DNA from: Gammaproteobacteria bacterium
GTDB lineage: Bacteria > Pseudomonadota > Gammaproteobacteria > Steroidobacterales > Steroidobacteraceae
Direction of reading: 5' to 3'
NCBI GenBank assembly: GCA_043752035.1
Contig: JAYUZE010000175.1
Span: forward strand, 1 to 52,409
Length of the DNA stretch: 52,409 bases
Position 1 is the first letter of the stretch. Each line of letters starts with the position of its first letter. Positions 10,500 to 40,990 of this stretch are shown piece by piece. The notes beneath the pieces are model-generated. The model did not search any database. It had not been told where the DNA came from and saw only the letters and a program-made list of their open reading frames with translations. The position numbers and the translations under genes are program-made.

Positions 10500-10504
10500 G
10501 GCAG

Positions 10505-24408: not shown

Positions 24409-25373
24409 CAGCCAATGCGCTTCAGTTCCAAAGCGGTCAGGTGCAGCTGCGCTGCACTCAGGTCTTCTTCAAGGTGATCGATACGCGACGTGCCTGGAAT
24501 CGGCAACATCTCCGGCGACTTGGCGAGCAGCCATGACAGGGCGACCGTGGGCACCGGCAGATGTCGTTCACCGGCGATGGCAATCAGCGCGTTGAGCGCA
24601 TTGCCGGCGCTGCCGGGACCGTGCGGACGCTGCGCCAGCGGCCCCCAGGGCAGAAAGGCAATCTGCTCGCGCTCGCAGACCGCCAGCACATCCTCGGAAG
24701 TCCGGTCCGCCACGTTGTAGCGATTCTGCACCGAGACCACCTTGATGATGCCCTGCGCGAGACGCAGTTGCGGCACATCGACATTCGACAGGCCGATGTG
24801 ACGGATCTTGCCCGCAAGCTGCAGATCCTTGAGTGCACCCAGCGAATCGGCCAGCGGCACCTTGGGATCCGGCCGGTGAAACTGATAGAGATCGATACGC
24901 TCGAGGCGCAGTCGTTTGAGGCTCCCCTCGCAGGCTGCGCGCAGATGCTCAGGCCTGCCATCTGGCGTCCATTCTTCGCGGCTCGGCCGCAGCAGGCCGC
25001 CCTTGGTGGCGATCACCAGGCCGCGAGGATAAGGATGGAGCGCCTCGGCGATCAGCCGCTCGCTTACGGCCGGTCCATAGGCATCCGCGGTGTCGATGAA
25101 ATTCACGCCCAGCGACAATGCACGCCGCAGCAGCGCACGCGCCTCGCGCGTATCGCGCGGCTCGCCCCAGATACCGTCGCCCGTGATGCGCATGGCTCCC
25201 AACCCCAAACGCATCACCTTCATGTCGCCACCGATCACCAGAGTGCCTGCCGCAGCAACTCTGGCTGTTGCCGATCCAGATGCCGACCACGCCGGATGTC
25301 CCAGCGCACCGGCACAACACAGGGCCACGGATTGCTGCAGCAACACGCGACGCGACGAGAGTACGGTATTCAT
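24408..25373 (-). CDS. Aldo/keto reductase with a twin-arginine (Tat) signal peptide
   Basis: [26 protein letters not shown] is a Tat-type leader, followed by an AKR core ([30 protein letters not shown]). Its stop overlaps the prpC start (TGATG). Confidence 0.85.
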
Positions 25374-26085
25374 GGACTGCTCCTTTGGTCTGACTCAGCC
25401 GCCACAGTGTCTGATTTTGGTGCAGCCCGCGCAAGCGCGCCATCCTGCAGCGCCCGCCACCACCTGCTGCCCTTCAGCAACTCGAACCACCCCAGGCAGG
25501 CGGCACCGCCGAGCAGGCTCAGTGCCTTGTCGGTCGCCTGCAGCGGCGCGAACTGGAACAGCCGCTGCACGCGCGGAACTTCCTGTACCAGTGCAAGGCA
25601 GGCGCAGGTTCCAGCGACGACCCGCCACACGGCGGCATTGGGTGCCGACAACATTGCCAGCGCCGAGCGGGTCCACGAGCGGTTGTTCAGCATGATCATC
25701 ACCTCCGAAACCACGAGGCCCGCGAACACCAGCGCGCGCGCTGCGTTGGTGCTGTGTCCCAGGCGCGCCAGCCCGAAGATCGCCAGGCACACCAGCAAAA
25801 CCGCTAGTCCCTGCAGCAACGCGAATGCGACGATCGGTGCGGAAAACAACCGCGCACGCGGTGAGCGCAGTGTGCGCCGCATGATGTTTACTTCGGCGCC
25901 CTCAGCCTCGAAGACCAGTGTGCATGCCGGGTAGATGATCAGTTCCAGGTATACGATATGCACCGGCAGCAGTAGCAGTGGCCAACCCGGTATCAGCATT
26001 GGGATCATCGAGCAGCACCAGCGCGGCCGCTTCGCGCGCCACATCGGTGCCACGCCCGCCCGTTGCGACGCCGGTGTGGGCGGCC
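25370..26085 (-). pseudogene. Remnant of a cation-transporting P-type ATPase (C-terminal quarter only, with an internal out-of-frame deletion)
   Basis: One frame reads ..AAHTGVATGGRGTDVAREAAALVLLDD (hinge motif). After about 25990-26005 the homology continues in another frame as PLLLLPVHIVYLELIIYPACTLVFEAEGAEVNIMRR.. plus the C-terminal TM helices. No phosphorylation or nucleotide-binding domains lie upstream. Confidence 0.7.
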
Positions 26086-26093
26086 TGCCCATC

Positions 26094-26387
26094 GGCCCGG
26101 TCGCGCTCGCGGGCGCCAGGGCACTGGAACAGCCACTGCTGAGCGCGATCGGCGCCGCGCTGGTGGCAACGCTCGCGGCAATGGCCTACTGGCGCAAGCG
26201 CAAATACGATCCTGGCTTCACGACCCAGCTAGCAATGCTGGTCACTTACCTGCTCGGTGTGATCGCGATCGAGCAGCCGATAGTCGCGGCCGGTGGCTTC
26301 GTGGTTGTCTCAGTGCTGCTCGCGGGTCGCCGCGAGTTGCACCAGTTTTCAGTCATAACGCTCTCCAGAACCGAGCTGCGCGGCGCC
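26094..26387 (+). pseudogene. Internal fragment of an MgtC/DUF4010-type membrane protein
   Basis: AYWRKRKYDPGFTTQLAMLVTYLLGVIAIEQPIVAAGGFVVVSVLLAGRRELHQFSVITLSRTEL matches the central region of MgtC-DUF4010 proteins. No credible N- or C-terminus is present, and it abuts fragments of other genes on both sides. Confidence 0.45.
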
Positions 26388-26824
26388 AGCATTTCGAGCA
26401 CACGCAGTTTGGGCGTCGGAAACAATACATTGAAGGTCTCGATTTTTGCTTCGAACCCCCATTCTTTGAAGGGTGCGAGTATCCACTCGGCATTGTCCTT
26501 GTCGTAGGGTGAGCCGAGATGATGCGGACGCGCGCTCAGGCGTCGCATGTTCTCGCGGATCGCATCGGCCGTCACGCCCTGCCAGAGGCGCTGCACCCAG
26601 CCACGCTGTTCGATCGCACTGTGGGTGCTGTAGCCCAGCATCGCGGCCGTTGGCGGCACCGGCACCATGGCATCCGGTTGTGCAGCAAGCAGTGGCAGGG
26701 CCGCGAACATCAGACTGGCGACGAGCGCCTGCAGTTTGTTCAACGCGGGTCTAGCGTAAGCGCTTACAGCAAACCAGACGGAGAAGGCGAGTTTGGCCTG
26801 GGAACTCGGAATAGTGGTCGGCAT
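26363..26824 (-). pseudogene. N-terminal fragment of an M28-family (glutamate carboxypeptidase II / transferrin-receptor-like) peptidase
   Basis: Signal peptide plus IRENMRRLSARPHHLGSPYDKDNAEWILAPFKEWGFEAKIETFNVLFPTPKLRVLEML, which is the characteristic N-terminal region. The PA and catalytic domains are missing, and the ORF runs into unrelated sequence. Confidence 0.6.
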
Positions 26825-26959
26825 GAGGGCTCCCCTGAAAATTGATCCGTGAATGGGATAGTGCTGCTGCAGCACTACGCCTGTGCGCGTAGTCTTTTCC
26901 AAGGATAATATGGGGGCATATCTGGCAGCGCGTCACCTCAGCAAGAGCCGGCAGGGAGA

Positions 26960-26988
26960 TTGACAGTCGCGGACGGCGACTGTAAATT
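26960..26988 (+). promoter_or_regulatory. Sigma70-type promoter upstream of the TBDR gene (TTGACA-17 nt-TAAATT)
   Basis: TTGACA at 26960-26965, a 17-nt spacer, and TAAATT at 26983-26988. The LacI-type operator begins 14 nt downstream of the -10 element. Confidence 0.6.
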
Positions 26989-27002
26989 CCAATCGCAGAA
27001 AG

Positions 27003-27016
27003 TGGGAAGGTTTCCA
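27003..27016. promoter_or_regulatory. LacI-family operator half-palindrome TGGGAAGGTTTCCA
   Basis: This is one of three related 14-bp inverted repeats in the locus. It sits just downstream of the predicted TBDR promoter. Confidence 0.6.
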
Positions 27017-27164
27017 TTCGTGGTTGCTGATCGTCGCTTGCAACCACAGAAGCCGAAAAAGTGCCCACAAAGACTAGGCCGTGGATGTGGGGTAAAAGTC
27101 AAGGCATGCAGATGGGCCGGGGCCCCTCTGGATGCCTTTCCAATCATAAGTCAGGGGGTTTCAG

Positions 27165-30062
27165 ATGAAGAATCGTGCAGCGTATCGGGCTGGCCTGCGT
27201 ACTTCGCCTTGCCGTCCTGCGACTTTGAATACCGTGGCCGCGACCGTGGCTGCAATTCTTTATGGCGCCGGCGCCTCAGCTCAGGCAGCCGCTGCACCTG
27301 CCGGCGACGTGATCGAAGAAGTGATCGTCACAGGCCTGCGCCATTCGATCGAAACCTCGATCGCGACCAAGCGCAAGTCTGAATCGATCGTCGAGTCGGT
27401 GTCGGCTGAGGACATCGGCAAACTGCCCGACGTCAGCATCGCCGAATCGCTGGCGCGGCTGCCTGGTCTGGCGGCGCAACGCGTCAACGGCCGCGCGCAG
27501 GTCATCTCGATCCGCGGCATGGCGCCGCGCTACGCCTCCACGCTCCTCAACGGCCGCGAAATGGTCAGCACCGGCGACAACCGGTCGATCGAGTACGACC
27601 AGTTTCCCTCGGAGCTGATCAACCAGGCTAATGTCTACAAAACTCCGGACTCGACGCTCGTCGGCCAGGGCTTGTCTGGTACAGTCGACATGCACACCGT
27701 GCGGCCGCTAGATTTCCACAAGCGCACCTTCTCGTTCAATGCGCGTGGCGAAAACAACTCCAATGGCCAGCTCAATGCCGACACCAGCGCCAGCGGCGAG
27801 CGCCTCAGCGCGTCGTACATCGACCAGTTTGCTGGCGGCACCATCGGCCTGGCGCTCGGCTACGCCTACCTGAACACGCCGAACCAGGAACGCCATTACA
27901 AGTCATGGTGGTGGGCCGATACCAGCCAGTGGGGCGGACCGACCTGCGCGAATGCGAATCCCTGCAACGGCGGAACCGACCCGGGCAAGCCGATCTCGGC
28001 CATCGCGCTGCAGGGCCTCGAGGCCGGCGCGGCCTCGACCAAGCAGATTCGCAACGGCCTGATGGCGGTGGTGGAGTTCAAACCTAACGATCACATCCAC
28101 AGCACAGTCGACCTGTACTACTCGAAATTCAATCAGGTCGAGAACCGGCGCACGCTGATGTCCGATTTCAGCAGCGCGGACAGCGGTTGGGGCGGTGCCT
28201 ACTACGTTAATCCCATGACCAGCGTGATCGACGGCAACACGATCCTGACCAGCGGCGACCTGAAGGGTATTCATCCGACCGACCTGAGCACGCTGAACAA
28301 GCGCCAGGACGACATCAAGGCGGCGGGCTGGAACCTGGAGGCGGGTCTCGGCAAGTGGACCGGCGTATTTGATCTGAGCTATTCGAAGGCCCATCGCGAA
28401 GAACAGAACGCGGAACTGCAGGCCGGGTCCGTCGATAACCTGAACACACCGTTGGGGGTCAATTTCGACAACTTGCGCATTGTCGTTGGTCCCGGGCGCA
28501 CGACCCTAACGCCTTCGATCGATTATTCAAATCCGACCCTGAATCGATTGGGAGATCCGGGCGGCTGGCATCGCGACGGCCGCAGCGAGTTTCCAACCGT
28601 CGACGATCAACTGAAGTCAGCCCGCGTCGGATTCAAGCGTGACCTGGACGGATTCTTCAGCCACTTCGAGACCGGGGCCAATTATTCCGAGCGCTCGAAG
28701 GACTACTCGCGCACCGAGGTCTATTACTTCCTGAACAACAACCGCACGCCGGCGTCGGTCTCTTCGGACCTGCTGTTTCGACCGACTTCACTCCAGTTTG
28801 GCGGCATCCCAGGCAACCTGATGGCCTTTGACTTCTTTGGTGTGCTTGCCAAGTACTACACCCCCTGCACTTCGGCAACTACCTGCCCGCCCGGCTACCA
28901 GAATGTACCGCAGGATCTGGCGAAGAACTGGTCCGATCGCATCTGGTCGGTCGATGAAAAGGTGTCGACCGCCTACGCCAAAGTGAACTTCAGAAAGGAG
29001 CACGGCTCGGTCACGACCCACGGCAATCTCGGCCTGCAGGTGGTGCATGCGAACCAGCAGGCCACGGGCTTTTACTGGGATGATCTCAACAAGGCCAACG
29101 TGCCGCTGGTGGGTGGCAAGAGCTACACCGATATACTGCCCAGCCTGAACCTGGTACTCGACCTGCCGAAGGATTCCTATGTTCGCGTGGGTGTCGCCAA
29201 GGAAATGGCGCGACCGAACATGGAAGACATGCGGGCCGGACTGAGTGTGAGCGTAGGCGATCAGTCCTCGCACTACAACTGGTCCGCCAGCGGCGGCAAC
29301 CCGGGACTCGAACCCTGGCGCTCCGATTCCTTCGACGTGTCGTTCGAGAAGTACTTCGGCAAGCGCAGCTACTTCGCGGTGGCGACCTTTTACAAGCACC
29401 TGAAGAACTTTGTCTACTCGCAGTCGGTACCGTTCGACCCGACCGGGTTCATCGATCCGCGCCCGCCCACCGTGCCGCCGGCGCCACCGCTAGTCCCGGC
29501 GAATTGCAACCCGAGTGGCTGCTACAAGACGGTACTGGCGAATGGTCATGACGGCCTGGTCGCCGGTCAGGAATACACGGTAGTGTTGAATTTCGGGCTG
29601 TTCACGCAGTCACTGGATGGCTACGGCTTGGAAATGAACGCCTCCGATACGCGCAGCAATCTGCACGAGGGCAACGATCTGAATGTGCCGCTCGACGGCC
29701 TGTCAGGCCAGGTGATCAACATTACGGGTTTCTACGAGAAGCACGGCTGGTCGGCACGCATCAGCAATCGTCACCGCTCGAAGTTCACAACCACCGTGCG
29801 CGGCACCTTCGGTGCCAACGTGCCGAGTGCGATCCTGGCAGAGTCGATCGTCGATTTGCAGCTCGGCTACGCCTTCGAGTCCGGTCGCCTGCACGGACTG
29901 TCGGTGTTGTTCCAGGTCAACAACCTGCGCGATGCGCCCTACGAGACCCAGGTTGGCAATTCGACCAACTATGCGGCGCCGAATCCGGCGATGCTGTTTC
30001 CGGAGCGCTTCACGACCTACGGCCGCGAGTACCTGTTCGGAATCAACTACAAGATCAACTGA
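27165..30062 (+). CDS. TonB-dependent receptor, large Xanthomonas/Caulobacter-type (carbohydrate-scavenging TBDR)
   Basis: 965 aa with a signal peptide, a plug domain (EEVIVTGLRHSIETS..VSAEDIGKLPD..ISIRGM) and a long barrel. It lies next to glycoside hydrolases, and a GGGGG Shine-Dalgarno precedes the ATG. Confidence 0.9.
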   Translation: MKNRAAYRAGLRTSPCRPATLNTVAATVAAILYGAGASAQAAAAPAGDVIEEVIVTGLRHSIETSIATKRKSESIVESVSAEDIGKLPDVSIAESLARLPGLAAQRVNGRAQVISIRGMAPRYASTLLNGREMVSTGDNRSIEYDQFPSELINQANVYKTPDSTLVGQGLSGTVDMHTVRPLDFHKRTFSFNARGENNSNGQLNADTSASGERLSASYIDQFAGGTIGLALGYAYLNTPNQERHYKSWWWADTSQWGGPTCANANPCNGGTDPGKPISAIALQGLEAGAASTKQIRNGLMAVVEFKPNDHIHSTVDLYYSKFNQVENRRTLMSDFSSADSGWGGAYYVNPMTSVIDGNTILTSGDLKGIHPTDLSTLNKRQDDIKAAGWNLEAGLGKWTGVFDLSYSKAHREEQNAELQAGSVDNLNTPLGVNFDNLRIVVGPGRTTLTPSIDYSNPTLNRLGDPGGWHRDGRSEFPTVDDQLKSARVGFKRDLDGFFSHFETGANYSERSKDYSRTEVYYFLNNNRTPASVSSDLLFRPTSLQFGGIPGNLMAFDFFGVLAKYYTPCTSATTCPPGYQNVPQDLAKNWSDRIWSVDEKVSTAYAKVNFRKEHGSVTTHGNLGLQVVHANQQATGFYWDDLNKANVPLVGGKSYTDILPSLNLVLDLPKDSYVRVGVAKEMARPNMEDMRAGLSVSVGDQSSHYNWSASGGNPGLEPWRSDSFDVSFEKYFGKRSYFAVATFYKHLKNFVYSQSVPFDPTGFIDPRPPTVPPAPPLVPANCNPSGCYKTVLANGHDGLVAGQEYTVVLNFGLFTQSLDGYGLEMNASDTRSNLHEGNDLNVPLDGLSGQVINITGFYEKHGWSARISNRHRSKFTTTVRGTFGANVPSAILAESIVDLQLGYAFESGRLHGLSVLFQVNNLRDAPYETQVGNSTNYAAPNPAMLFPERFTTYGREYLFGINYKIN

Positions 30063-30066
30063 GCGC

Positions 30067-31575
30067 TTACGGGGGCTGCGCGGCGCAGTTGCTGGCAACG
30101 AATTCGCCGTGCGTCGGCATGACTGCGACGCACCGCCTGATCACGCTCTCGATGTTGCCGAGATAGTTGGCAATAGTCTCCGGCGTTTCCAGGTCGACCA
30201 GTGGGTCATAGCCCTGCGGCATGATGTGCTGGCCGACCATTACCTGCAGCCAGTTCTCTTCGGTGAACAATTCCTCGTTCTCGCGAAAGATGCGGCCGTT
30301 CGCGCGGAACAGCTCGATCTTGTGGCTGAGCGTGTCCGGAATCGGCATATTCCGGCAATACCTCCACAGCTCGGCGTCATCGCGCTCATTGGCCTTGTAG
30401 TGCAGGATGATGAAATCGCGGATCCGCTCATATTCAAAATCAGCGCTGCGATTGAACTGTGCGACCTCCGCGGGATCGACGCCGCGATGCGGGAACAGCC
30501 GCAGCAACCGCAACAGAGTCGACTGAATCAGATGAATGCTGGTCGACTCCAGCGGCTCGAGAAAGCCGCTCGCCAGGCCGACAGCAACGCAGTTGCGGTT
30601 CCAGAGCCGACGCCGCTTGCCAGGCCAAAAGGGGATCAGCCGCGGCAGCGACAGTGGCTTGCCATCGAGGTTGTCGAGCAGTACCTTCGCGGCCTGGTCC
30701 TCGCTGATGAAGCTGCTCGAGTAGACATGGCCGTTGCCGGTGCGATGCTGTAGCGGTATGCGCCACTGCCAGCCGGCGCGGTGGGCTGTAGAGCGCGTGA
30801 TCGGCAACAGCTCCGGCACCGCTTCGCAGGGCACAGCCAGTGCGCGATCACACGGCAGCCAGCGACTCCAGTCTTCATAGCCGGTGTGCAGCGCCTGCTC
30901 GATCAGCACGCCGCGGCTGCCGGAACAATCGATGAACAGGTCGCCGGCGACCTGCTCGCCACTCGCCAAAACTACGGCCTCGATGAAGCCGTCGCTGGCG
31001 CGCAGCTGCGTCGTGGCGATCAGCCCTTCAGTGCGCACTACGCCACGAGCTTCGCTGTACTGGCGCAGGTACCGGGCGTACAGGCTGGCATCGAAGTGGA
31101 AGGCATGCGTGATGTCGGCCAGCGGTGAGTTGGCCATGTCTGGGCGGCTGCGCATGAATCTGGCCTCGCGCGGCGCCACGGTATTGATCGAATACTCGCC
31201 AAGCGCGGGAGCCGCGCCCAACAGCCGCTGGCGCAGCCAGTACTGGTAGCAGCGCAGCAGCCCCAGGTCGTGACCGATGCGCCCGAAACCGTGGATGTAG
31301 CGATCGCCCACGCGACCCCAGTTCACAAACTCGATGCCAAGTTTGAAGGTGCCGTGGGTCTTGCGGATAAAATCGTCTTCATCCAGCTGCAAGGCGGTGT
31401 TGAAGGCCTTGATCGATGGAATGGTCGCTTCGCCAACGCCGATGGTGCCGATCTCGTCGGACTCGATCAGCCGTATCTTGAAGCCCCGCGAGAAGACTTT
31501 GGCAAACAGCGCGGCGCTCATCCAGCCGGCGGTGCCCCCACCCACAATGACGATATGGCGTAGCGGTGTGCTCAT
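30067..31575 (-). CDS. Flavin-dependent tryptophan-halogenase-family protein (copy 1)
   Basis: IVIVGGGTAGWMSA (GxGxxG), GVGEATIP, TFKLGIEFVNW, GWQWRIPLQ (WxWxIP) and GFLEPLESTSI. Confidence 0.85.
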   Translation of the reverse strand: MSTPLRHIVIVGGGTAGWMSAALFAKVFSRGFKIRLIESDEIGTIGVGEATIPSIKAFNTALQLDEDDFIRKTHGTFKLGIEFVNWGRVGDRYIHGFGRIGHDLGLLRCYQYWLRQRLLGAAPALGEYSINTVAPREARFMRSRPDMANSPLADITHAFHFDASLYARYLRQYSEARGVVRTEGLIATTQLRASDGFIEAVVLASGEQVAGDLFIDCSGSRGVLIEQALHTGYEDWSRWLPCDRALAVPCEAVPELLPITRSTAHRAGWQWRIPLQHRTGNGHVYSSSFISEDQAAKVLLDNLDGKPLSLPRLIPFWPGKRRRLWNRNCVAVGLASGFLEPLESTSIHLIQSTLLRLLRLFPHRGVDPAEVAQFNRSADFEYERIRDFIILHYKANERDDAELWRYCRNMPIPDTLSHKIELFRANGRIFRENEELFTEENWLQVMVGQHIMPQGYDPLVDLETPETIANYLGNIESVIRRCVAVMPTHGEFVASNCAAQPP

Positions 31576-31597
31576 GGGCGGTCATGGCTCCGGAGAC

Positions 31598-33097
31598 TCA
31601 AGCGGCACAATTTCGCGCGATGAAGTCCCGGTGCAGCGGCATGACCTCCGCGCAGCGCCCGATGACAGTTTCGATGTCGGCCAGGTAGCGCGCAATCAGC
31701 TCGGGCGCCAGCGCGTCGACCAGCGGATCGTAGCTGCGCGGCATGAGGTGTTGGCCGATCATCACCTGCAGCCAGCTATCCTCGGCAAACAGTTCGTCGT
31801 TTTCCCGGAAGATGCGGCCGTTGGCCCGAAACAGCTCGATCTTGCGCTGCAAGGTCTCGGGGATCGGCATGGTGCGGCAGTAATCCCACATCGGCGAATC
31901 GTTCCGCTCCGTTGCCTTGTAGTGCAAGATGATGAAATCGCGAATCCGCTCGTATTCAAACTCCGATTCGCGGTTGAAGAGTTCGATCTCCGCGGCATTG
32001 AACTCCTGGTGCGGAAACAGCCGCGTCAGGCGCACGATCGCAGTCTGGATCATGTGTATGCTCGTCGATTCGAGCGGCTCGAGAAAACCGCCAGCCAGGC
32101 CGACTGCGATGCAGTTGCGGTGCCAGGCTTTGCGGCGCCTGCCGGGCTGGAACGGAATTGTGCGCGGCGCCGCCAGCGGCCTGCCATCCAGATTCGCGAG
32201 CAGTATCGCTGTTGCCTCGTCCTCGCCCAAGTAGCGGCTCGAGTACACGTGACCATTGCCGATGCGGTGCTGCAGCGGAATGCGCCACTGCCAGCCGGCG
32301 CGATGCGCAGTCGAACGCGTCATCGGCAGCAGCACCTGATCCGATTCACAGGGCACGGCGATCGCACGATCGCAGGGCAACCAGTGACTCCAGTCTTCGT
32401 AGCCCGCATGGAGCGCCTGCTCGATCAGCAGTGCACGTGTGCCGGAACAGTCGATGAACAGCTCGCCGGCAATGCATTCACCACTTGCGAGCACCAGGGT
32501 TTCGATGAACCCGTCGGGCTCGCGCAGCCGCACCTCGACGATTCTGCCCTCGGTGCGCACTACGCCGCGCGCCTCGGCGTACTGACGCAGAAATCGTGCG
32601 TACAGGCTGGCGTCGAAATGGAAGGCATAGGCGATGTCGGCCAGTGGCGAATCCTTCATCTCCGGACGGCTGCGCATGAATTTCGCCTGCCGTGGCGCCG
32701 CGGTGTTGATGGAGTAGTTGGCCAGGTCCGACACACTCCCCTGCAGACGCTGGCGCAACCAGTATTGGTAACATTTGAGCGAGCCCCAGTCCTGGCCGAT
32801 GCGGCCGAAGCCATGCACGTAGGCATCGCCCAACCGCCCCCAGTTCACAAACTCAATGCCGAGCTTGAAGGTGCCCTGCGTCTTGCGCATGAATTCATCT
32901 TCATTGAGATCGAGCGCCTTGTTGAATTTGGCGATAGCCGGAATCGTGGCCTCGCCCACGCCGACCGTGGCGATCTGATCGGACTCCACCAGCCGGATGC
33001 GATATCCGCTGGGCAACAGTTTCGACAGCAATGCCGCGGACATCCAGCCCGCGGTGCCGCCACCGACGATCACGATATTTTGGATCCGCTCTGCCAT
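31598..33097 (-). CDS. Flavin-dependent tryptophan-halogenase-family protein (copy 2, tandem paralogue)
   Basis: It carries the same motif set as copy 1 (IVIVGGGTAGWMSA, TFKLGIEFVNW, GWQWRIPLQ, GFLEPLESTSI). The two copies are clearly similar at the nucleotide level. ATG at 33097 lies 2 nt after the upstream stop; 33115 is an alternative start. Confidence 0.85.
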   Translation of the reverse strand: MAERIQNIVIVGGGTAGWMSAALLSKLLPSGYRIRLVESDQIATVGVGEATIPAIAKFNKALDLNEDEFMRKTQGTFKLGIEFVNWGRLGDAYVHGFGRIGQDWGSLKCYQYWLRQRLQGSVSDLANYSINTAAPRQAKFMRSRPEMKDSPLADIAYAFHFDASLYARFLRQYAEARGVVRTEGRIVEVRLREPDGFIETLVLASGECIAGELFIDCSGTRALLIEQALHAGYEDWSHWLPCDRAIAVPCESDQVLLPMTRSTAHRAGWQWRIPLQHRIGNGHVYSSRYLGEDEATAILLANLDGRPLAAPRTIPFQPGRRRKAWHRNCIAVGLAGGFLEPLESTSIHMIQTAIVRLTRLFPHQEFNAAEIELFNRESEFEYERIRDFIILHYKATERNDSPMWDYCRTMPIPETLQRKIELFRANGRIFRENDELFAEDSWLQVMIGQHLMPRSYDPLVDALAPELIARYLADIETVIGRCAEVMPLHRDFIARNCAA

Positions 33098-33099
33098 GC

Positions 33100-34218
33100 T
33101 TAGGCACGCAGCCACAGGTCAATCGGTTTCCTGGCCGCACTCGTGAACGGCAACATGACCTTGCGACCCGTACCTGCCGATTCATAGGCAGCAAACAACA
33201 CTTCGAGCACCGCACGCCCATCCTCGCCGCTAACCAGCGGCTGGCGATCGTTCTGCACACAATCCACGAAGTGCGCCATCTCGGCGTGAAAGCCGTAATT
33301 CCACGCCTCCTCGTAGATTGGAAAACTCCAGCCCGCCGTTGAGCCTGCTTTCTCGACCGCGTAACCGTAGCCGCTGCTGCTGTAGGCCTCGAGGGCATTG
33401 CCGTGCAGCAGGTCGGCGTAGGCCACACCCTTCGAGCCGTGCACTTCGGCACGATCGTCCATGCCGCCGAGCTTGGTCCAGCTCTCTTCGGCCAGCGCAA
33501 CGGTGCCATCGGCAAACTCGAGTATCAGCAACGCGTTGTCCTCGCCCCGGGTTTTGGCTCGATGCACCGAGGTATTCAGCTGCGCATAGACCGATTTCAC
33601 CGGCGGGCGTCCCAGCATCCACCGAAAGAACTCGATTGCATGGCAACCCATGTCCATCAGCACACCGCCGCCGGAGCGATTGACGTCCCAGAAGTGAGCG
33701 GCGTGCGGGCCGTCGTGCTTCTCGGATTGCTTGATCAGCGTCGGCTTGCCGAGCGCGCCTTCATCCAGCAGCGATTTGAGGCGCACGTACTTGGGCGCAA
33801 AGCACAGCTCCTCGGCATACATCAGTTTCACCTGCGACTGCTGGCAGGACGCGATCATCCGATCGGCCTCGGCAAGATTCAGGCACAGGGGTTTTTCCAT
33901 CACTATGTGTTTCCCGGCCGCGGCCGCAGCCAGCGCGATCTCGCAGTGCAGGTCATTGGGCACACCGACCACCACCATGGCGATCATGGGGTCGGCCAGC
34001 AGCTTGCGGTAGTCGGTGTAACAGCGGGCGATGCCGTGGCGTTCCGCAAATCGCGTCGCATTGCCAGGCGTCGGCGATGCTACCCCGAGCAGCTGTGCCT
34101 GCCGGCAGCCGCGCAGCGCCTCGGCGTGAATGCCAGAAATGAATTGCGACCCTATGATGCCGACCCCTACCTGCTGACCAGCTACCTGCTGAACAGAGGT
34201 CCCGCTATGATCGCGCAT
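33100..34218 (-). CDS. Gfo/Idh/MocA-family NAD(P)-dependent oxidoreductase
   Basis: Rossmann N-terminus VGVGIIGSQFISGIHAEAL, an EKPL motif (VMEKPLCLN) and a C-terminal alpha/beta domain. No signal peptide is visible. Confidence 0.85.
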   Translation of the reverse strand: MRDHSGTSVQQVAGQQVGVGIIGSQFISGIHAEALRGCRQAQLLGVASPTPGNATRFAERHGIARCYTDYRKLLADPMIAMVVVGVPNDLHCEIALAAAAAGKHIVMEKPLCLNLAEADRMIASCQQSQVKLMYAEELCFAPKYVRLKSLLDEGALGKPTLIKQSEKHDGPHAAHFWDVNRSGGGVLMDMGCHAIEFFRWMLGRPPVKSVYAQLNTSVHRAKTRGEDNALLILEFADGTVALAEESWTKLGGMDDRAEVHGSKGVAYADLLHGNALEAYSSSGYGYAVEKAGSTAGWSFPIYEEAWNYGFHAEMAHFVDCVQNDRQPLVSGEDGRAVLEVLFAAYESAGTGRKVMLPFTSAARKPIDLWLRA

Positions 34219-34222
34219 GGGA

Positions 34223-35242
34223 TCAGTCCCGCGCCGGCGTGATCACGATGTTGCGAAACGCGACGCGGCCCTCCTCGCTCCCCTGCAGCAGGATCGGGCC
34301 CGAACTCCCCTCACGGGTGTCGAGCGCTCCGCCGGTGGTGCCTGGAATCTCCTCATTGTCGATGATCGTCTGGCCGTCGAGCACTACCGTAACGTACCGG
34401 CCTTCGAGCGTGAGATCGTAGGCATGCCACTCGCCGGCCTGGATGTGTGGCTTGGGCTGCGGCGCCAGGAAGCCGTAGACACCGCCCAGTCCCTGGTTCG
34501 CCGCATCGGGCGGCGGTCCGACTTCGATCTGCACCTCATAGCGGCCGCGCAGGTACACCCCGCTGTTCGAGATTGGTGCGCAGTTGAATTCAATGTGCAG
34601 TTTAAAATCTCGGAAGTTTTTCTGAGTCTGCAGATCGGGCCCCTGCCCCTGACTCAGCAATGTGCCGTCGGTGACCAGCCAGCGGCTATGCGCGCCAGGA
34701 TCGCTGATGTGCCAGCCTCGCATATCGCGGCCGTTGAACAGCGTGATGGGTTTGCCCCAGACAATCACGGGCGGAGGTTTGAGCGCCGGCGCCGGAACGG
34801 CGTGCCAGGTCCATGGCGTGCCATCTGGCCCGGTGGTCGTGCCATTCAGCGAGTGCCCACGCAGGCGTCCGTCGAAAGTCATGTCGGAATCGATGCGGCC
34901 CTCCTCTTCCTTGGGCGACACGAAATGAATACGATCGCCGGTGATACTGGCCTCCGGCAGTACGCGCGCGTGACCCCAGCGGCCCACCATGCGCACCTGC
35001 ACGGCACCGTTCACCGTGGCGATTTCCAGCCACGAGGAATAGTCGCGCTTACCGGCCTTTAGCGTGACATTCCAGCGACCCAGAAAGGGCTGGGCCTCAA
35101 CCGCGCCGCTGCACACACTGCTGAACGCACTGAGCGCACCGAGCGTTACCAACAGCACTGCGCGCGAGCACCTCGGCCGCCGCGCGGTCATTGCGCGCCG
35201 CTGCATCGTTGAAACCACCATGGCGCTTACTCCTCTGTCCAT
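34223..35242 (-). CDS. Secreted DUF1080 (3-keto-disaccharide-hydrolase-like, concanavalin-fold) protein
   Basis: Signal peptide, then a C-terminal DUF1080 pattern (LFNGRDMRGWH..WLVTDGTL..KNFRDFKLHIEF..NSGVYLRGRYEVQI..ILLQGSEEGRVAFRNIVI). Start taken at ATG 35242, just after the GH30 stop. Confidence 0.7.
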   Translation of the reverse strand: MDRGVSAMVVSTMQRRAMTARRPRCSRAVLLVTLGALSAFSSVCSGAVEAQPFLGRWNVTLKAGKRDYSSWLEIATVNGAVQVRMVGRWGHARVLPEASITGDRIHFVSPKEEEGRIDSDMTFDGRLRGHSLNGTTTGPDGTPWTWHAVPAPALKPPPVIVWGKPITLFNGRDMRGWHISDPGAHSRWLVTDGTLLSQGQGPDLQTQKNFRDFKLHIEFNCAPISNSGVYLRGRYEVQIEVGPPPDAANQGLGGVYGFLAPQPKPHIQAGEWHAYDLTLEGRYVTVVLDGQTIIDNEEIPGTTGGALDTREGSSGPILLQGSEEGRVAFRNIVITPARD

Positions 35243-35244
35243 TG

Positions 35245-36699
35245 TCACTTCGCTCCCCATGCAAAAGTAGCCACGGCACCCGCGGGCAAATCATAGGCCA
35301 GGGTGCGCCGCGAAACTCTCACCGAAAACCTGCGCGCCCCCGCCGCACCGTTGTACACCAGCAGGGCCAGCGAACCATCATCGCTGTTACGGAAGGCCAC
35401 GGTTCGCAGACCATCCAGATTGGAGGTCGAGTCGATACGCCGGGCACCGGGCCGCACAAAACGCCCCAGATGCGCCAGACTGTAGTATTCGACGTTGCGG
35501 GTCACCGCGCCCGTGCCCGAATTTATGGTCACCACACCGCGGCAATCGTCGCACCCTCCCAGGTGCGGGCCGTAGCGTTCATCGAGCGCCAGGTTCCACA
35601 GGATCGTTCCGCTACCCCAGTTACGGCCGCCTTCGATCAGCAACATGCCTGCAAACCAGCGCAGCCCACCAGCCCAGGACGGTTCCCATTCACCGCCTGA
35701 GCACTCCGTCATCAGCGCGGACAATCCCGGGTGGGCATTGTGCACCAGCGATTGCGCGGCAATTTCACCGCCGTAACAGTGCCAGGCGACGCCGGCGACA
35801 AAGCGTCCTGCCACCGGGTCATCCAACACCTGAAGCGGTGACTCAGAGACATCCCAGTTGTGATCGTACTCGAAGAACAACGGCGCCCCTGCGTGGCGGG
35901 CCAGTTTCGGGCCGAGGTGCTGGGCAATGAAGCGGGCGCGGTCCGCGGGTTCGAAACGCATGCCCGGATAGTCGGTCGGCTCGAATCCCGGCTCGTTCTG
36001 GGCGGTGAGGCCATACAGCGGCACGCCGGCCTGCCGGTAGCTGTCGGCGAAACGCAGCAGGTAGTCGGCGAAAGCATCATAGTGCTCGGGCAGCAAGTGG
36101 CCCTTGACCAGGCTGCCGGAACTTTTCATCCAGCCCGGCGCGCTCCAGGTCGAGCCGATCAGTCTCATCGACGGATTGATCTCATGTGCCGCGCGCACCA
36201 GCGACAGCACGCGCTTGCCGTTGGCACCTAGATCGAAATGCGCGAGCGCCGCGTCGGCTTCTCCCGACGCCAGATCGTCGAAGGAATAGTGTTCGGCGGA
36301 AAAATCTGAAGCCCCAATCGGCACCCGCATCAGGCTGAGCCCGATACCCGGCGGCGGACCGAACAGCTCGCGCAGCAGCGCAGCACGCGCCGGCGGCTCA
36401 AGCCGGCGCTCGAACAGCAACGCGGTGGCGTCGGTAAACGCTGCGCCTACACCGAGGAATTCCTGGTAGCGCCGATGCGCATCGACATCGATGTTGAGCG
36501 CCAGAGGCGCCGCAGCTGCAAATTGCAGATCGGCGTCGCGCGCCAGCAACCGGGTACGGTCGGCGGTAGTTACCCACACCTGCACTGCAGGTTCACGGAC
36601 GTGCGCTGCGCAGGCAACCATGCTCAGCACCATCAGTGCACCGAGCGCGCCACGGGTCGCCGGGCGTTGCGCGGTAACTTCGCAGTGTCGGGAGCTCAT
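35245..36699 (-). CDS. Glycoside hydrolase family 30 (glucosylceramidase / beta-1,6-glucanase-like)
   Basis: GVGAAFTDA, LTAQNEPGF (acid/base Glu) and LMTECSGG (nucleophile Glu), with a signal-anchor N-terminus. ATG at 36699 lies directly after the ABC ATPase stop. Confidence 0.85.
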   Translation of the reverse strand: MSSRHCEVTAQRPATRGALGALMVLSMVACAAHVREPAVQVWVTTADRTRLLARDADLQFAAAAPLALNIDVDAHRRYQEFLGVGAAFTDATALLFERRLEPPARAALLRELFGPPPGIGLSLMRVPIGASDFSAEHYSFDDLASGEADAALAHFDLGANGKRVLSLVRAAHEINPSMRLIGSTWSAPGWMKSSGSLVKGHLLPEHYDAFADYLLRFADSYRQAGVPLYGLTAQNEPGFEPTDYPGMRFEPADRARFIAQHLGPKLARHAGAPLFFEYDHNWDVSESPLQVLDDPVAGRFVAGVAWHCYGGEIAAQSLVHNAHPGLSALMTECSGGEWEPSWAGGLRWFAGMLLIEGGRNWGSGTILWNLALDERYGPHLGGCDDCRGVVTINSGTGAVTRNVEYYSLAHLGRFVRPGARRIDSTSNLDGLRTVAFRNSDDGSLALLVYNGAAGARRFSVRVSRRTLAYDLPAGAVATFAWGAK

Positions 36700-36700
36700 A

Positions 36701-37807
36701 TCAACGTCGCTCCCCACTGGTGACATCAAACAATGAAACAGCCTCCACATCGATGGCGACGCTCAGCATGTCACCACGATTGTAGCGCTGTCCTTGATGG
36801 TTCAGTGCCGCGACCGTGCCGCACTCGAGTTCCATCCATATGATTTCGTGGCTGCCCAGCGGTTCAATCAGCGTCACCCTGCCCTGAGTGTTGGCTGCGC
36901 CCTGCGCGTGCGCCGCGCCCTGCTCCGCGACTGCGAGCCGCAGGTGTTCCGGTCGCACGCCAAGAGCCAGCGGCTCGCCGTGGGCCGGTGGCGCAGCACT
37001 GAATACCTGCGCAGGTAGTTCGATGCGCAGCCCGGCAGCGCAGAATTGCCTGCTCGCACCGACCGTCGTAACATTGCCCTCGATGAAATTCATTGCGGGC
37101 GAGCCAAGGAAACCCGCCACATAGCGATTCACGGGTCGCCGGTACACTTCGTCGGGCGTGCCCAGCTGCTGAATGCACCCGCCCTGCATCACAGCCAGCC
37201 GGGTCGCCAGCGTCAGGGCTTCGACCTGGTCATGAGTGACATGAATCATCGTCGCGCCCAGACGCTGGTGCAACAGCTTCAACTCGCGCCGCAGCGTGGC
37301 ACGCAGCCCTGCATCCAGGTTGGAGAGCGGCTCGTCGAGCAGCAGCAGGGCTGCCTCGCGCACCAGCGCACGACCGATGGCCACACGCTGGCGCTGCCCG
37401 CCGGAGAGCTGCGCGGGCCTGCGATCCAGCAGGGATTCGAGCTGCAGCAGCTGAGCCGTGCGCAGCACCCGCTGTCGCACTTCGGCGCGCGCCACGCCAC
37501 GCGCGCGCAGCCCGAAACTCAGATTGCCCTCGACCGACAGGGTCGGATACAGCGCATAGGACTGAAACACCATGCCCACGTTGCGTTCACCCGCATCGCA
37601 CCGGGTGCGATCGATGCCATCGATGAGCACCCGCCCGGACTGTGGCGCCTGTAATCCAGCCACGGTGTGCAGCAGTGTCGACTTGCCGCAACCTGAGGCC
37701 CCCAGCAGCACCAGGAACTCGCCGGAATCCACCTGCAGATCGAGCTGGTCGATCACCGTGCGACCACCCAGCTGCACACATAACTGCTCTACGGTAAGTG
37801 CCGTCAT
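36701..37807 (-). CDS. Sugar ABC transporter ATP-binding protein (MalK/UgpC-type)
   Basis: GASGCGKSTLL, LSGGQRQRVAIGRAL and LLLLDEPLSNLD, plus a C-terminal TOBE-like regulatory domain. Confidence 0.9.
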   Translation of the reverse strand: MTALTVEQLCVQLGGRTVIDQLDLQVDSGEFLVLLGASGCGKSTLLHTVAGLQAPQSGRVLIDGIDRTRCDAGERNVGMVFQSYALYPTLSVEGNLSFGLRARGVARAEVRQRVLRTAQLLQLESLLDRRPAQLSGGQRQRVAIGRALVREAALLLLDEPLSNLDAGLRATLRRELKLLHQRLGATMIHVTHDQVEALTLATRLAVMQGGCIQQLGTPDEVYRRPVNRYVAGFLGSPAMNFIEGNVTTVGASRQFCAAGLRIELPAQVFSAAPPAHGEPLALGVRPEHLRLAVAEQGAAHAQGAANTQGRVTLIEPLGSHEIIWMELECGTVAALNHQGQRYNRGDMLSVAIDVEAVSLFDVTSGERR

Positions 37808-37810
37808 GCT

Positions 37811-38677
37811 TCAGGCCTTGAGCGCGCCGGCGGCAATGCCGCGCACGAACCAGCGGCCTGCCAACGCGTAGATCAGCAGCGGCACCAGTGCCGTGAGCAT
37901 GGTCGCCGCCATGTCGACGTTGTACTGGCGCGTGCCTGTGGTCGTGTTGACCAGATTGTTGAGCTGCACCGTCATCGGTAGATGATCGCGCCCTGCGAAT
38001 ACCAGGCCCAACAGGTAGTCGTTCCACACGCCGGTGGCCTGCATGATGGCGGCCACGGCCAGCATCGGCAGCGACATCGGCAGCATCAATCGCACAAACG
38101 CATACAGGAAGCCGGCGCCGTCGAGGCGCGCCGCCAGGAACAGTTCGCGCGGCAGCGCTGCGTAGTAATTGCGAAAGATCAGCGTCATCACCGGCATGCT
38201 GAAAATCACGTGGACAATGATGATGCCGGTGAGTGAACCGACCAGATGGAACGGTGCCAGCAGGCGCACCAGCGGCAACATCATCACCTGGATGGGCAGG
38301 AAGGCGCCGATCATCAGCACCGCAAATAGCAGGCCGGCACCACGCAGTCGCCAGCAGGCCAACGCGTAGCCGTTGAGTGCGCCGAGCCCGACCGCGATCA
38401 GCGTGCTCGGGATCACGATCAGCACTGAATTCCAGAAGCCCGCGCTGATACCGTCGCAGGCTACTCCCGTGCAGGCACTGCTCCATGCGGCACGCCACGC
38501 CGTAGTGTTCAGGTGCAGCGGCAATGCGAATAGCGAGGTGTTGCGTACCTCCTCCATGCTCTTGAAGGAGGTAAGACTCATCACGTACAACGGCAGCAGG
38601 AAGCACAAGGCCGCCGAGATCAACAGTGCCAGCAGGCCGAGCCTCGCCGGATCGGCATACCAGCGTCGCGCGCTCAT
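37811..38677 (-). CDS. Carbohydrate ABC transporter permease (MalG-like)
   Basis: 288 aa, 6-TM binding-protein-dependent permease with an EAA-like loop (ELFLAARLDGAG). Confidence 0.88.
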   Translation of the reverse strand: MSARRWYADPARLGLLALLISAALCFLLPLYVMSLTSFKSMEEVRNTSLFALPLHLNTTAWRAAWSSACTGVACDGISAGFWNSVLIVIPSTLIAVGLGALNGYALACWRLRGAGLLFAVLMIGAFLPIQVMMLPLVRLLAPFHLVGSLTGIIIVHVIFSMPVMTLIFRNYYAALPRELFLAARLDGAGFLYAFVRLMLPMSLPMLAVAAIMQATGVWNDYLLGLVFAGRDHLPMTVQLNNLVNTTTGTRQYNVDMAATMLTALVPLLIYALAGRWFVRGIAAGALKA

Positions 38678-39546
38678 GTACGCACCCGGCTGGCGCGCGC
38701 ACGTGCATAGATCAGCGGCATCATCGCGATCAGCGCCGTGGCAACCAGTACGGTAGCGCCAGCAGAGGCCAGCGCGATATTGGCGCGCCCGAACAGGTGA
38801 TCCATGATGAACTTGGCCGGCACTTCACTCGCGGTGCCCGGCCCGCCCTGCGTCATCGCCACCACGGCGTCGTAGAGTTTCACCACGCCCGTCAGCAGCA
38901 ACAGCGCGGCAGTGGCAAAGGGTGCCGCTAGCATCGGCGCGATCACCGACAGGTGCAGCCGCCACGCAGGTATCGCCTCGATGCGCGCGGCACGCCAGAT
39001 ATCCGGATCGATCCCGCGCATGCCGGCAAGCAGTATCGTCATCACCAGGCCCGAGGCCTGCCAAACCGTCGCGATTACGATGGTGTAGAGCACGTGATCC
39101 TGATCGACCAGCCAATCGAAGCGAAACTGGCTGAAACCCCAGCGCCGCACGGCCTGCTGGATGCCGAGCTCCGGATTCAGCAACCATTGCCACACCAGAC
39201 CTGTGGCAATGAATGACATCGCGTAAGGGTAGAGGAACACCAGCCGCAGCGCGCCGCCGATGCGCACCTCGCGTTCGATCAGGATCGCCAGCAACCAACC
39301 GATGATCAGGCAGGCGAGCACAAACAGCAGGCCGTAGCTCGCCAGGTTGCCGAGCGAGTGCAGCCAGCGTTCATTGCTGAAGAGCCGGCGGTATTGCGCC
39401 AGACCGACGAAATCGGCTACCGGAAAGCTGCGTGAACTGGTCAGCGAAATGCGCAACGACCAGAGCGTGGCGCCCAGATAACACGCCAGTGCCACCACGG
39501 CCATCGGCAGCAGGGCCAGATGCGCGCGGCTGAATCCAGTTTTCAT
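38674..39546 (-). CDS. Carbohydrate ABC transporter permease (MalF-like)
   Basis: 290 aa permease with an EAA-like loop (DIWRAARIEAIP). It has a 4-nt overlap with the downstream permease gene. Confidence 0.88.
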   Translation of the reverse strand: MKTGFSRAHLALLPMAVVALACYLGATLWSLRISLTSSRSFPVADFVGLAQYRRLFSNERWLHSLGNLASYGLLFVLACLIIGWLLAILIEREVRIGGALRLVFLYPYAMSFIATGLVWQWLLNPELGIQQAVRRWGFSQFRFDWLVDQDHVLYTIVIATVWQASGLVMTILLAGMRGIDPDIWRAARIEAIPAWRLHLSVIAPMLAAPFATAALLLLTGVVKLYDAVVAMTQGGPGTASEVPAKFIMDHLFGRANIALASAGATVLVATALIAMMPLIYARARASRVRT

Positions 39547-40979: not shown

Positions 40980-40990
40980 GTTTTCAGGGC

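Follow-up and report, generated by a model that had tools for sequence, protein, structure and literature searches.

Tandem BrvH-type halogenase genes in a predicted LacI-controlled carbohydrate-uptake locus with a TonB-dependent receptor

Introduction

BrvH from Brevundimonas sp. BAL3 (PDB 6FRL), Xcc4156 from Xanthomonas campestris B100 (6Y1W) and the protein of PDB entry 9LUQ, from Pseudoalteromonas sp. L11, are the closest relatives of known structure of two adjacent halogenase-like proteins, Hal1 and Hal2, whose genes lie on contig JAYUZE010000175.1 of a Steroidobacteraceae genome (Gammaproteobacteria; assembly GCA_043752035.1). We analysed positions 1 to 52,409 of this contig, which we refer to as the window. 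BrvH and three Xanthomonas enzymes brominate indole and indole derivatives, not free tryptophan, and their activity is very low (PMC5945002, PMC7336383). In BrvH, a short loop spanning residues 432-444 takes the place of the long loop of RebH that holds tryptophan by its amino and carboxylate groups, and the site is open to solvent; RebH residues 440-467 serve here as the reference for the tryptophan-covering loop (PMC5945002). The authors of the structures proposed a peptide substrate for BrvH and Xcc4156 (PMC5945002, PMC7336383). The conserved WxWxIP motif is held to block monooxygenase chemistry (PMC5945002), and halogenases of group C are recognized by the motifs ATIPxI and HxFGx and by the lack of the Trp3 and Trp4 motifs (PMC8269204).

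The genomic company of such halogenases has also been described. Iyer et al. (2010) reported a neighbourhood consisting of a TonB-dependent receptor (TBDR), one to three tryptophan-halogenase homologues, SapC and a JmjC/2-oxoglutarate (2OG) oxygenase, for which they predicted a siderophore-like role (PMC2938197); an earlier note on the window, made from the sequence alone, was thus right that the co-occurrence of halogenases and TBDRs was already in the literature. The carbohydrate utilization containing TBDR (CUT) loci of Xanthomonas and Caulobacter bring together a TBDR, an inner-membrane transporter, glycoside hydrolases (GHs) and a LacI-family regulator (Blanvillain et al. 2007, PMC1790865). 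Halogenases go unmentioned there, as they do in a Shewanella sugar-pathway paper, and full-text literature searches turned up no paper in which these halogenases are given a physiological role or connected with sugar uptake.

The window resembles each of these systems in part. Hal1 shares with BrvH, Xcc4156 and 9LUQ a full-length alignment, the catalytic Lys and Glu, WxWxIP, the short open loop, the indole contacts and the group-C motifs, and the BrvH gene, too, is adjoined by a halogenase paralogue (PMC5945002). Hal1 and Hal2 nevertheless form a distinct subfamily, with about 48% identity to the characterized enzymes as opposed to 55-66% to the halogenases of 80 genome loci, and their genes are the distal cistrons of an operon for an ATP-binding cassette (ABC) importer and GHs. 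With the neighbourhood of Iyer et al. the window has in common a halogenase with an intact Rossmann fold and catalytic Lys beside a TBDR, the presence of tandem paralogues and the occurrence in Alpha- and Gammaproteobacteria. It differs in that the TBDR is convergent, as it also is in the related loci L001 and L002, and not co-directional as in 51 of 82 loci, and in being plainly a LacI-type carbohydrate locus, which is at odds with the siderophore-like prediction. Pfam scans of the window's open reading frames (ORFs) found no SapC, Cupin_8/JmjC, 2OG oxygenase or DUF6445; Cupin_8, DUF6445 or a 2OG oxygenase is present in some related loci. From the CUT loci, with which it shares the TBDR type, an inner-membrane transporter, GHs and a LacI-family regulator, the window departs by using an ABC system for the inner-membrane step and by including two halogenase genes in the operon.

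Already known, therefore, are the association with TBDRs (PMC2938197) and the clade's enzymology and structures (PMC5945002, PMC7336383, PMC8269204). New in the window are a conserved operator signature and the placement of the halogenase genes, which are duplicated in tandem, come last in an ABC-importer/GH operon and converge on the receptor gene. In what follows, we computed from the sequence to which family the proteins belong, which catalytic residues they have, how tightly the operon is packed, where operator sites lie and the statistics of synteny. These results lead us to suggest that these halogenases serve a function common to receptor-based uptake.

Results

Hal1 and Hal2 belong with BrvH and Xcc4156

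In a profile search, both proteins matched the halogenase family PF04820 (Trp_halogenase; cut-off 21 bits) with about 640 bits and from position 1 to 457 of the 458 profile positions. They are 71% identical to each other in a gapless alignment, and both contain GGGTAG, GVGEATIP, TFKLGIEFVNW, GWQWRIP and EPLEST, the whole set of motifs on which the earlier note had based its description of tandem halogenase-like paralogues. GGGTAG, at residues 12-17 of either protein, is the FAD-binding GxGxxG and is kept in 98-99 of 100 homologues. We used the ATG start of Hal1, the listed longest ORF of which reaches a GTG at 33115; the sequence GGAG stands upstream of Hal2. A simple gene caller had preferred a longer antisense ORF over the Hal genes. 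Judged by their N-terminal sequences, both proteins lack a signal peptide.

The best sequence matches in the PDB were 6Y1W, 9LUQ and 6FRL (500-536 bits, E 1e-145 to 1e-160; for Hal1 1e-149 to 1e-160), with query residues 4-499 aligned to residues 10-502 of BrvH, 16-502 of Xcc4156 and 4-493 of 9LUQ at 47-49% identity. LooH, PrnA, RebH, PyrH and Thal matched more weakly (250-306 bits, E about 1e-72 to 1e-90; 250-290 bits and about 1e-72 to 1e-85 for the tryptophan halogenases PrnA, RebH, Thal and PyrH alone), and the alignments to PrnA, RebH, Thal and LooH ended near query residue 426-430. The catalytic pair is in place: by alignment, K78 of Hal1 corresponds to K79 of PrnA and E343 to E346, while GWQWRIP (W269-Q-W271-R-I-P274) takes the position of SGWTWKIP. 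The indole contacts M442, F443 and S447 of BrvH (PMC5945002) fall without a gap on L436, F437 and S441 of Hal1, and the group-C motifs read ATIPAI and HGFGR in Hal1 and ATIPSI and HGFGR in Hal2. These features are shared widely, as the catalytic Lys and Glu, WxWxIP, H95 and F97 are kept in 100 of 100 homologues, and in every one of them the substrate loop is as short as that of BrvH, without insertions or deletions. F437 and W442 are kept in 99 of the 100; position 436 is L in 79 and L, M or F in 97, and position 441 is S in 73 and S, G or A in 97.

On these comparisons, it is near certain that Hal1 and Hal2 are halogenases of the BrvH/Xcc4156 type and not tryptophan halogenases. We considered that they might be strict tryptophan halogenases and rejected this on the bit scores, the truncated alignments, the short loop and the lack of a secondary-metabolite cluster; Pfam and NCBIfam scans of the window ORFs found no nonribosomal peptide synthetase (NRPS) or polyketide synthase (PKS) gene in the 52 kb. 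The contrast with PrnA, RebH, PyrH and Thal is therefore twofold, as the window proteins lack the long tryptophan-covering loop (PMC5945002) and are not encoded in a biosynthetic cluster. The label "tryptophan-type" given in the earlier note gives way accordingly, and of the two structural elements that it had singled out for inspection, the Lys/Glu pair proved intact by alignment and the tryptophan-binding loop proved missing. Its statement that no substrate or reaction had been assigned holds for the native substrate but not for the reaction, given the in vitro bromination of indole by members of the clade (PMC5945002, PMC7336383).

A search of structures with an AlphaFold model of Hal1 agreed with the sequence matches: the top Foldseek matches were the BrvH, Xcc4156 and 9LUQ structures, with TM-scores of 0.75-0.77. 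The model, built from a 13-sequence alignment, is of moderate quality (pLDDT 65, pTM 0.66) and was used for this fold search only. Its pLDDT is below 50 precisely at the most highly conserved motif regions (residues 43-53, 75-101, 253-280 and 335-346), which likely stems from the shallow, uniform alignment of 13 sequences rather than from disorder.

Both copies of the gene are under purifying selection: the ratio of non-synonymous to synonymous substitution rates (dN/dS) lies between 0.10 and 0.18 (0.10 for Hal1 and 0.14 for Hal2 against their L002 orthologues, and 0.18 for Hal1 against Hal2). We also considered a foreign origin of the Hal genes and rejected it; their GC contents at the three codon positions (GC1/GC2/GC3 0.62/0.44/0.79) are like those of their neighbours and show no compositional anomaly.

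The halogenase genes close a sugar-uptake operon

By Pfam assignment, the minus-strand genes follow the order sugar-binding protein (SBP), permease, permease, MalK-type ATPase, GH30, DUF1080, Gfo/Idh/MocA, Hal1 and Hal2, so that the Hal genes are indeed, as the earlier note had it, the last two of nine tightly packed cistrons. The gaps range from -4 to +22 nt: 11 nt between the SBP gene and the first permease gene, -4 nt between the permease genes, 3 nt between the second of these and malK, 1 nt between malK and the GH30 gene if the latter starts at its internal ATG at 36699 (-50 nt with the longest GH30 ORF), 2 nt between the GH30 and DUF1080 genes, again with an internal ATG (-16 nt with the longest ORF), 4 nt between DUF1080 and Gfo, 2 nt from the Gfo stop codon to the Hal1 ATG, and 22 nt, the largest gap of the operon, between Hal1 and Hal2. 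A promoter and terminator scan found no promoter-like or terminator-like site above the shuffle background inside the operon. With no gap above 22 nt and neither an internal promoter-like nor a convincing terminator-like site, the link between the halogenase and sugar genes is operonic rather than one of mere adjacency, as previously claimed, and Hal1 and Hal2 are likely co-transcribed with the sugar genes.

The operon converges on a TBDR gene of the carbohydrate type (TIGR01782, 567 bits), which likewise accords with the earlier description. The receptor's stop codon ends at 30062 and that of Hal2 at 30067, leaving 4 nt between the two convergent genes; no significant intrinsic terminator or hairpin was found at this junction (z-scores -1.0 and +0.2). 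Receptor, inner-membrane transporter, GHs and regulator are thus clustered (Pfam and NCBIfam), as in a CUT locus.

The Gfo and DUF1080 genes directly upstream of Hal1 recall the oxidative glycoside-cleavage pair, in which a Gfo-type glycoside 3-dehydrogenase acts together with a DUF1080 3-keto-glycoside hydrolase, and both families are adjacent here as well. The Gfo protein, however, stays below the cut-off of all specific NCBIfam models (33 bits for the glycoside 3-dehydrogenase model), and the pair is missing from L002. Because L002 retains its halogenases without the pair, the pair is not tied to them.

A shared operator predicts one LacI regulon of three units

A 14-bp palindrome, TGGRAANNTTYCCA, occurs at exactly three sites in the 52 kb, all of them perfect in a search that allowed one mismatch. 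The chance expectation is 0.14 sites, and three sites were reached in 0 of 100 shuffles. The sites lie upstream of the TBDR gene, in the divergent region between lacI and the SBP gene, and before the GH1 gene (Table 1), and two of the three stand just downstream of a -10-like hexamer. In L001, the palindrome is found in the same three places, and in L002 upstream of the TBDR gene; there was no other match in 1.47 Mb of other loci.

We infer co-transcription from the packing of the genes and LacI repression from these sites: a single LacI regulon would be expected to have operators at three promoters, and the three operators found there, kept in L001 and L002, make it very likely that a LacI-type operator is shared, and likely that the TBDR gene, the nine-gene operon and GH1-GH3 form one regulon of three units. 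The proposal that a LacI-type repressor co-regulates the Hal operon with GH1, GH3 and GH30 is thereby strengthened. Since the Hal genes belong to a sugar-importer operon, and the receptor and glycosidase genes have the predicted LacI operator in common with them, a sugar is the predicted physiological trigger of Hal expression.

The longest ORF of the SBP gene starts at 41000, inside the promoter-like site, and its L001 orthologue is called at 410 aa; the likely start is the GTG at 40805, with the signal peptide directly after it. The operon's leader, from the promoter-like site to this probable GTG, would be about 185 nt long (40806-41000), and a short out-of-frame ORF begins with an ATG at 40849.

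The receptor is the constant partner of the halogenase family

The family is a very large one: at E <= 1e-50 there were matches to at least 8000 clusters formed at 90% identity, and among the matches listed the closest named relative, 86% identical, is that of a Steroidobacteraceae genome bin. When one genome was scanned per species, 80 loci were obtained from Alpha-, Beta- and Gammaproteobacteria, and the identity of their halogenases to Hal1 is 55-66%. In them we mapped homologues of the window proteins by tblastn and receptors by a hidden Markov model built from the loci, adding a second receptor class that has an N-terminal CarboxypepD_reg domain.

In two close contigs Hal is retained within this operon: L001, in which a divergent lacI is followed by SBP, permease, permease, MalK, GH30, DUF1080, Gfo and a single Hal, and L002, with the order SBP, permease, permease, MalK, Hal, Hal, GH30 and neither Gfo nor DUF1080; the TBDR is convergent in both. 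Among all 82 loci, the TBDR gene lies directly upstream of Hal on the same strand in 51, is separated from it by one gene (GH3) in 5, is divergent in 4 and convergent in 2, so that a receptor adjoins Hal or is one gene off in 62 of 82. It is elsewhere in the locus in 5, the flank is too short to judge in 11, and in 4 loci there is no TBDR although the flank would suffice. The same-strand gap between TBDR and Hal measures 65-238 nt (37 pairs measured).

The enzymes that stand beside Hal are far less uniform. In Sphingomonas, Caulobacter, Brevundimonas and some Betaproteobacteria they are GH30, GH3 and GH1. Many Burkholderiales, and Lysobacter, have GH13, GH31, GH97, glucokinase, an esterase and a MalEFG-type transporter. 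In Rudaea, Rhodanobacter and Steroidobacteraceae, the second receptor class occurs with a PF10091 "glucoamylase" domain, which we take to be the GH144 beta-1,2-glucanase family. Other loci have sulfatases, DUF6445 and Cupin_8 beside Hal. Two cultured bacteria widen this range, Asticcacaulis excentricus CB 48 with the order TBDR, Hal, GH95 and Catenovulum adriaticum with LacI, TBDR, 2OG oxygenase, Hal and amylosucrase, adjoined by GH32 and a major facilitator superfamily (MFS) transporter. The neighbouring enzyme types thus cover beta-glucan, alpha-glucan, beta-1,2-glucan, sucrose and fucoside. Maltodextrins, sucrose and beta-glucans have no aromatic part.

Hal sequences do not follow these differences in cargo. 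Identity of Hal to the window protein stays at 55-66% while that of the adjacent TBDR drops from 48% to 25%, and when the loci are grouped by type of glycan and by bacterial class, the mean Hal identities between groups hardly differ (55-63%). Betaproteobacterial Hals from beta-glucan loci are no closer to alphaproteobacterial Hals from beta-glucan loci than to betaproteobacterial ones from alpha-glucan loci. We considered cargo-specific Hal clades and rejected them, as a grouping in a neighbour-joining (NJ) tree without bootstrap is unsupported and the pairwise identities are nearly flat. As far as gene neighbourhoods tell, the constant partner of the halogenase family is the TBDR, not the glycan or the enzyme set.

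The receptor itself need not be of one type. The second class (CarboxypepD_reg plus OMP_b-brl_4) lies directly upstream of a window-like Hal in L037, L052, L055, L066, L071, L079 and L082 (Rudaea, Rhodanobacter, Steroidobacteraceae and others), often together with a PF10091 protein, so the halogenase link is not confined to TIGR01782 receptors. In Lysobacter, loci L015, L016 and L057 (about 2500-4050 and 10001-11488) contain an Xcc4156 orthologue (69%) with Cupin_8, a window-like Hal (62%) and GH13. Because these orthologues share such loci, the biochemically studied Xcc4156 is, by this comparison, tied to the same kind of sugar locus.

Hal copy number and placement vary among the loci. A Hal lies directly after MalK in L002, L003, L010 and L019. 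L003 (7242-21328, a Casimicrobium sp. genome bin) reads TBDR, Hal, GH3, GH1, SBP, permease, permease, MalK, Hal, and its two halogenases are mutual closest relatives in the NJ tree. This tree places the duplication that gave Hal1 and Hal2 in a lineage common to the window and L002, and shows that the L003 pair arose separately. In L039 (154-11488), L051, L063, L064 and L078, a single TBDR is followed or faced by a tandem array of three to five Hal paralogues, which are 26-61% identical to Hal1, the largest array having up to five paralogues (L039).

Discussion

We put the probability at about 0.55 that Hal1 and Hal2 are BrvH-type halogenases placed in a LacI-controlled uptake regulon, where they serve a function common to receptor-based uptake and not the transformation of the cargo. 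A general receptor-linked role with an indolic substrate has about even odds. Halogenating activity and the nature of the substrate are what we infer from the family. As for expression, LacI would repress the nine-gene operon, the adjacent TBDR gene and GH1-GH3 through the three copies of the palindromic operator, so that Hal would be made whenever the uptake system for beta-glucans or beta-glucosides is induced. The TBDR, judged by its family, would import an oligosaccharide; the GH30 lipoprotein and GH3, judged by their families and signal peptides, would shorten it once in the periplasm; transport over the inner membrane would fall to the binding protein and ABC system; and GH1 would complete hydrolysis in the cytoplasm. 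Hal1 and Hal2 are predicted to be cytoplasmic and dependent on FADH2. As is typical of the family, reduced flavin, O2 and halide would yield hypohalous acid, which the invariant Lys78 and Glu343 would direct onto an electron-rich aromatic ring, most likely an indole-like one, held in the short-looped, solvent-open pocket, and free tryptophan would not be the expected substrate. The enzymes may then act on one common indole-bearing substrate, be it a small molecule or a tryptophan residue of some peptide or protein. In the lineage of the window, the Hal genes have shifted from their usual site right behind the receptor gene to the far end of the ABC/GH operon, and they have duplicated.

Several observations weigh against a receptor-linked function of this general kind. 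The NJ tree (without bootstrap) loosely joins Hals from beta-glucan loci of three proteobacterial classes, although pairwise identities disagree with it. The substrate-side "pyramid" region is 60% identical within groups and 46% between groups, compared with 71% and 62% for the core ("box"), and this substrate-side divergence may leave room for locus-specific substrates. Many paralogues have been kept, each beside its own receptor, which could mean roles specific to the receptor or its cargo. The characterized enzymes are only 47-49% identical to Hal1 and Hal2, and their very low activity on indole may indicate that indole is a surrogate substrate. The Hal1 model is of moderate quality, with its pLDDT of 65. 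Pfam scans of the window ORFs found no flavin reductase gene, and the Hal genes, being convergent with the receptor gene, would not be co-transcribed with it in the window.

The earlier note had proposed a flavin-dependent step on a glycoside or its aglycone. In a fuller form, this would have Hal act on the cargo of the system, be it a glycoside, an aromatic aglycone or an enolisable 3-keto-glycoside provided by the adjacent Gfo, by halogenation or oxidation. Hal does share its operon and predicted regulon with GH30, GH1, GH3, DUF1080 and Gfo; the 2-nt distance from the Gfo stop codon to the Hal1 start suggests that their translation is coupled; the order Gfo-Hal is kept in L001; and between locus groups the core is less variable than the substrate-side region. 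However, the TBDRs of alpha-glucan, beta-1,2-glucan, sucrose and fucoside loci, for which there is no common aglycone, have beside them homologues of 47-66% identity in which the catalytic and indole-contact set is likewise invariant, and beta-glucans have no aromatic group. L002 retains Hal-Hal in the operon without Gfo and DUF1080, DUF1080 has a signal peptide whereas Hal is cytoplasmic, and WxWxIP is held to prevent monooxygenase chemistry (PMC5945002). Because the accompanying enzymes vary and the TBDR is constant, a step on one specific glycoside or aglycone is unlikely, and the proposal is weakened further by catalytic and indole-contact residues that are near or fully invariant. The published prediction of a halogenated siderophore-like metabolite that Hal would help to make and the neighbouring receptor would take up (Iyer et al. 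2010) covers the combination of TBDR, one to three halogenases, SapC and JmjC (PMC2938197) and would fit the intact catalytic residues. We regard it as very improbable here: the receptor is of the carbohydrate type, with 567 bits to TIGR01782 and 50 bits to the siderophore-receptor model; the predicted LacI-type operator is shared with GHs; the scans of the 52-kb window found no gene for an NRPS, PKS, SapC, Cupin_8 or DUF6445 protein; and in related loci sugar-active enzymes and sugar transporters make up the overwhelming majority of the neighbours.

The other alternatives keep the receptor in view. Hal might modify a tryptophan in a peptide or protein of the uptake machinery, for example a receptor precursor before export, as part of TBDR function or biogenesis. 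This would fit the near-universal pairing with TBDRs over three proteobacterial classes and many cargo types, the open, solvent-exposed site like that of the peptide halogenase MibH, the suggested peptide substrate (PMC5945002, PMC7336383) and the highly conserved indole contacts (F437 and W442 in 99/100, L436 in 79/100, S441 in 73/100); Cupin_8/JmjC-like or 2OG oxygenases, which are typical peptide modifiers, are moreover frequent in related loci (PMC2938197). Halogenated outer-membrane proteins have not been reported, though, Hal and the receptor are in separate transcription units in the window, L001 and L002, and halide in soil and fresh water is low for bromination, all of which leave this idea improbable. 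Much the same standing can be given to the view that the halogenases are passengers, brought along with a receptor-halogenase module and attached by rearrangement, with little or no role in glycan use and an unrelated housekeeping halogenation or detoxification as their task. The departure from the common TBDR-Hal order does show rearrangement, and the family has no member with a known function; yet mere passengers would sit poorly with the strong purifying selection on both copies, the tight operon position kept in L001, L002, L003, L010 and L019, the independent keeping of two copies in the window/L002 lineage and in L003, and the receptor link conserved across classes.

Returning to a function common to receptor-based uptake, its boldest form would make halogenation a regulated part of receptor-mediated nutrient foraging with one common indole-bearing target, in the extreme a tryptophan of the TBDR or of another envelope protein before export. 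We consider this unlikely; if true, it would give the first halogenated transport protein and place halogenation in primary metabolism instead of antibiotic synthesis. Caulobacterales, Sphingomonadales, Burkholderiales, Xanthomonadales and Alteromonadales abound in "tryptophan halogenase" genes beside carbohydrate TBDRs, and the counting of "halogenase" genes in environmental surveys of organohalogens would change if halogenation did serve nutrient uptake. The survey argues that the partner in need of explanation is the receptor and not the glycan, which narrows the hypotheses. The organism of the window is uncultured, so it is not itself a test system; the survey offers culturable models in Caulobacter vibrioides (DSM 9893; L009, with LacI, TBDR, Hal, GH3 and GH30), Sphingomonas species, Asticcacaulis excentricus CB 48 and Catenovulum adriaticum.

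Features of the locus and of the rest of the window

The genes and operator sites of the locus are listed in Table 1. GH30 resembles endo-beta-1,6-glucanases (NF053856, 269 bits, under the cut-off of 700 of that model).

Table 1 Genes and predicted operator sites of the halogenase locus, by position in the window
Feature	Position	Strand	Remarks
Operator TGGGAAGGTTTCCA	27003-27016	+	Upstream of TBDR; 15 nt after TTGACA-17-TAAATT promoter-like site (26960-26988)
TBDR	27165-30062	+	965 aa; Plug domain; TIGR01782 "TonB-Xanth-Caul" 567 bits (cut-off 310); siderophore-receptor model 50 bits
Hal2	30067-31575	-	502 aa; ninth and last cistron; PF04820 637.6 bits; paralogue of Hal1
Hal1	31598-33097	-	499 aa from ATG; eighth cistron; PF04820 645.5 bits; BrvH/Xcc4156-type
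Gfo/Idh/MocA oxidoreductase	33100-34218	-	372 aa; cytoplasmic; PF01408, PF02894, PF22725
DUF1080 protein (Pfam now "3keto-disac_hyd")	34223-35260	-	Signal peptide; PF06439 134.7 bits, residues 171-340
GH30	35245-36750, likely start 36699	-	PF02055, PF17189; signal peptide, lipobox-like MVAC
MalK-type ABC ATPase	36701-37807	-	PF00005, PF17912, PF08402
ABC permeases (two)	37811-38677, 38674-39546	-	PF00528 (BPD_transp_1) in each
Sugar-binding protein SBP_bac_1	39558-40805	-	First cistron (Pfam); signal peptide
Operator TGGGAACGTTTCCA	40966-40979	-	Divergent lacI/SBP region; 12 nt after TTGACG-18-TATATT (41020-40991), operon strand
LacI-family repressor	41028-42068	+	Divergent from operon; NCBIfam LacI-family models up to 202 bits
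Operator TGGAAAGCTTTCCA	42129-42142	.	Perfect palindrome, 88 nt before GH1 ATG
GH1 beta-glucosidase	42230-43618	+	Cytoplasmic, without signal peptide; TIGR03356 607 bits, above cut-off
GH3	43623-45566	+	Signal peptide; partial matches to exo-beta-1,3/1,6-glucosidase models

On the far side of the receptor gene, 25370-26092 (-) encodes only the C-terminal domain of a cation-transporting P-type ATPase (240 aa, PF00689). Its counterpart in L001 is a full gene of 887 aa, located between the receptor gene and genes for an aldo-keto reductase and citrate synthase. This comparison points to a truncation or deletion of the ATPase gene next to the TBDR promoter (26093-27164); the ORF at 26246-26902 in this interval had no family match.

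The window has a second TBDR gene, at 3191-5287 (-), encoding 698 aa with a Plug domain and with no halogenase adjoining. Directly upstream of it is a thiamine pyrophosphate (TPP) riboswitch (RF00059, 5277-5389, minus strand, 75.7 bits against a cut-off of 54.3), and the receptor accordingly looks like a predicted thiamine-controlled outer-membrane transporter.

ARAGORN called an 88-nt tRNA-Arg(ACG) at 44810-44897 (+) inside the GH3 coding sequence, where there is no Rfam tRNA; the call is probably a false positive. Between the GH3 and M14 carboxypeptidase genes, the segment 46000-50300 has a composition unlike the rest of the window, with a lower GC content (0.58-0.61) and a GC skew that is strongly negative (about -0.18), and contains only short ORFs, most of them without a Pfam match.

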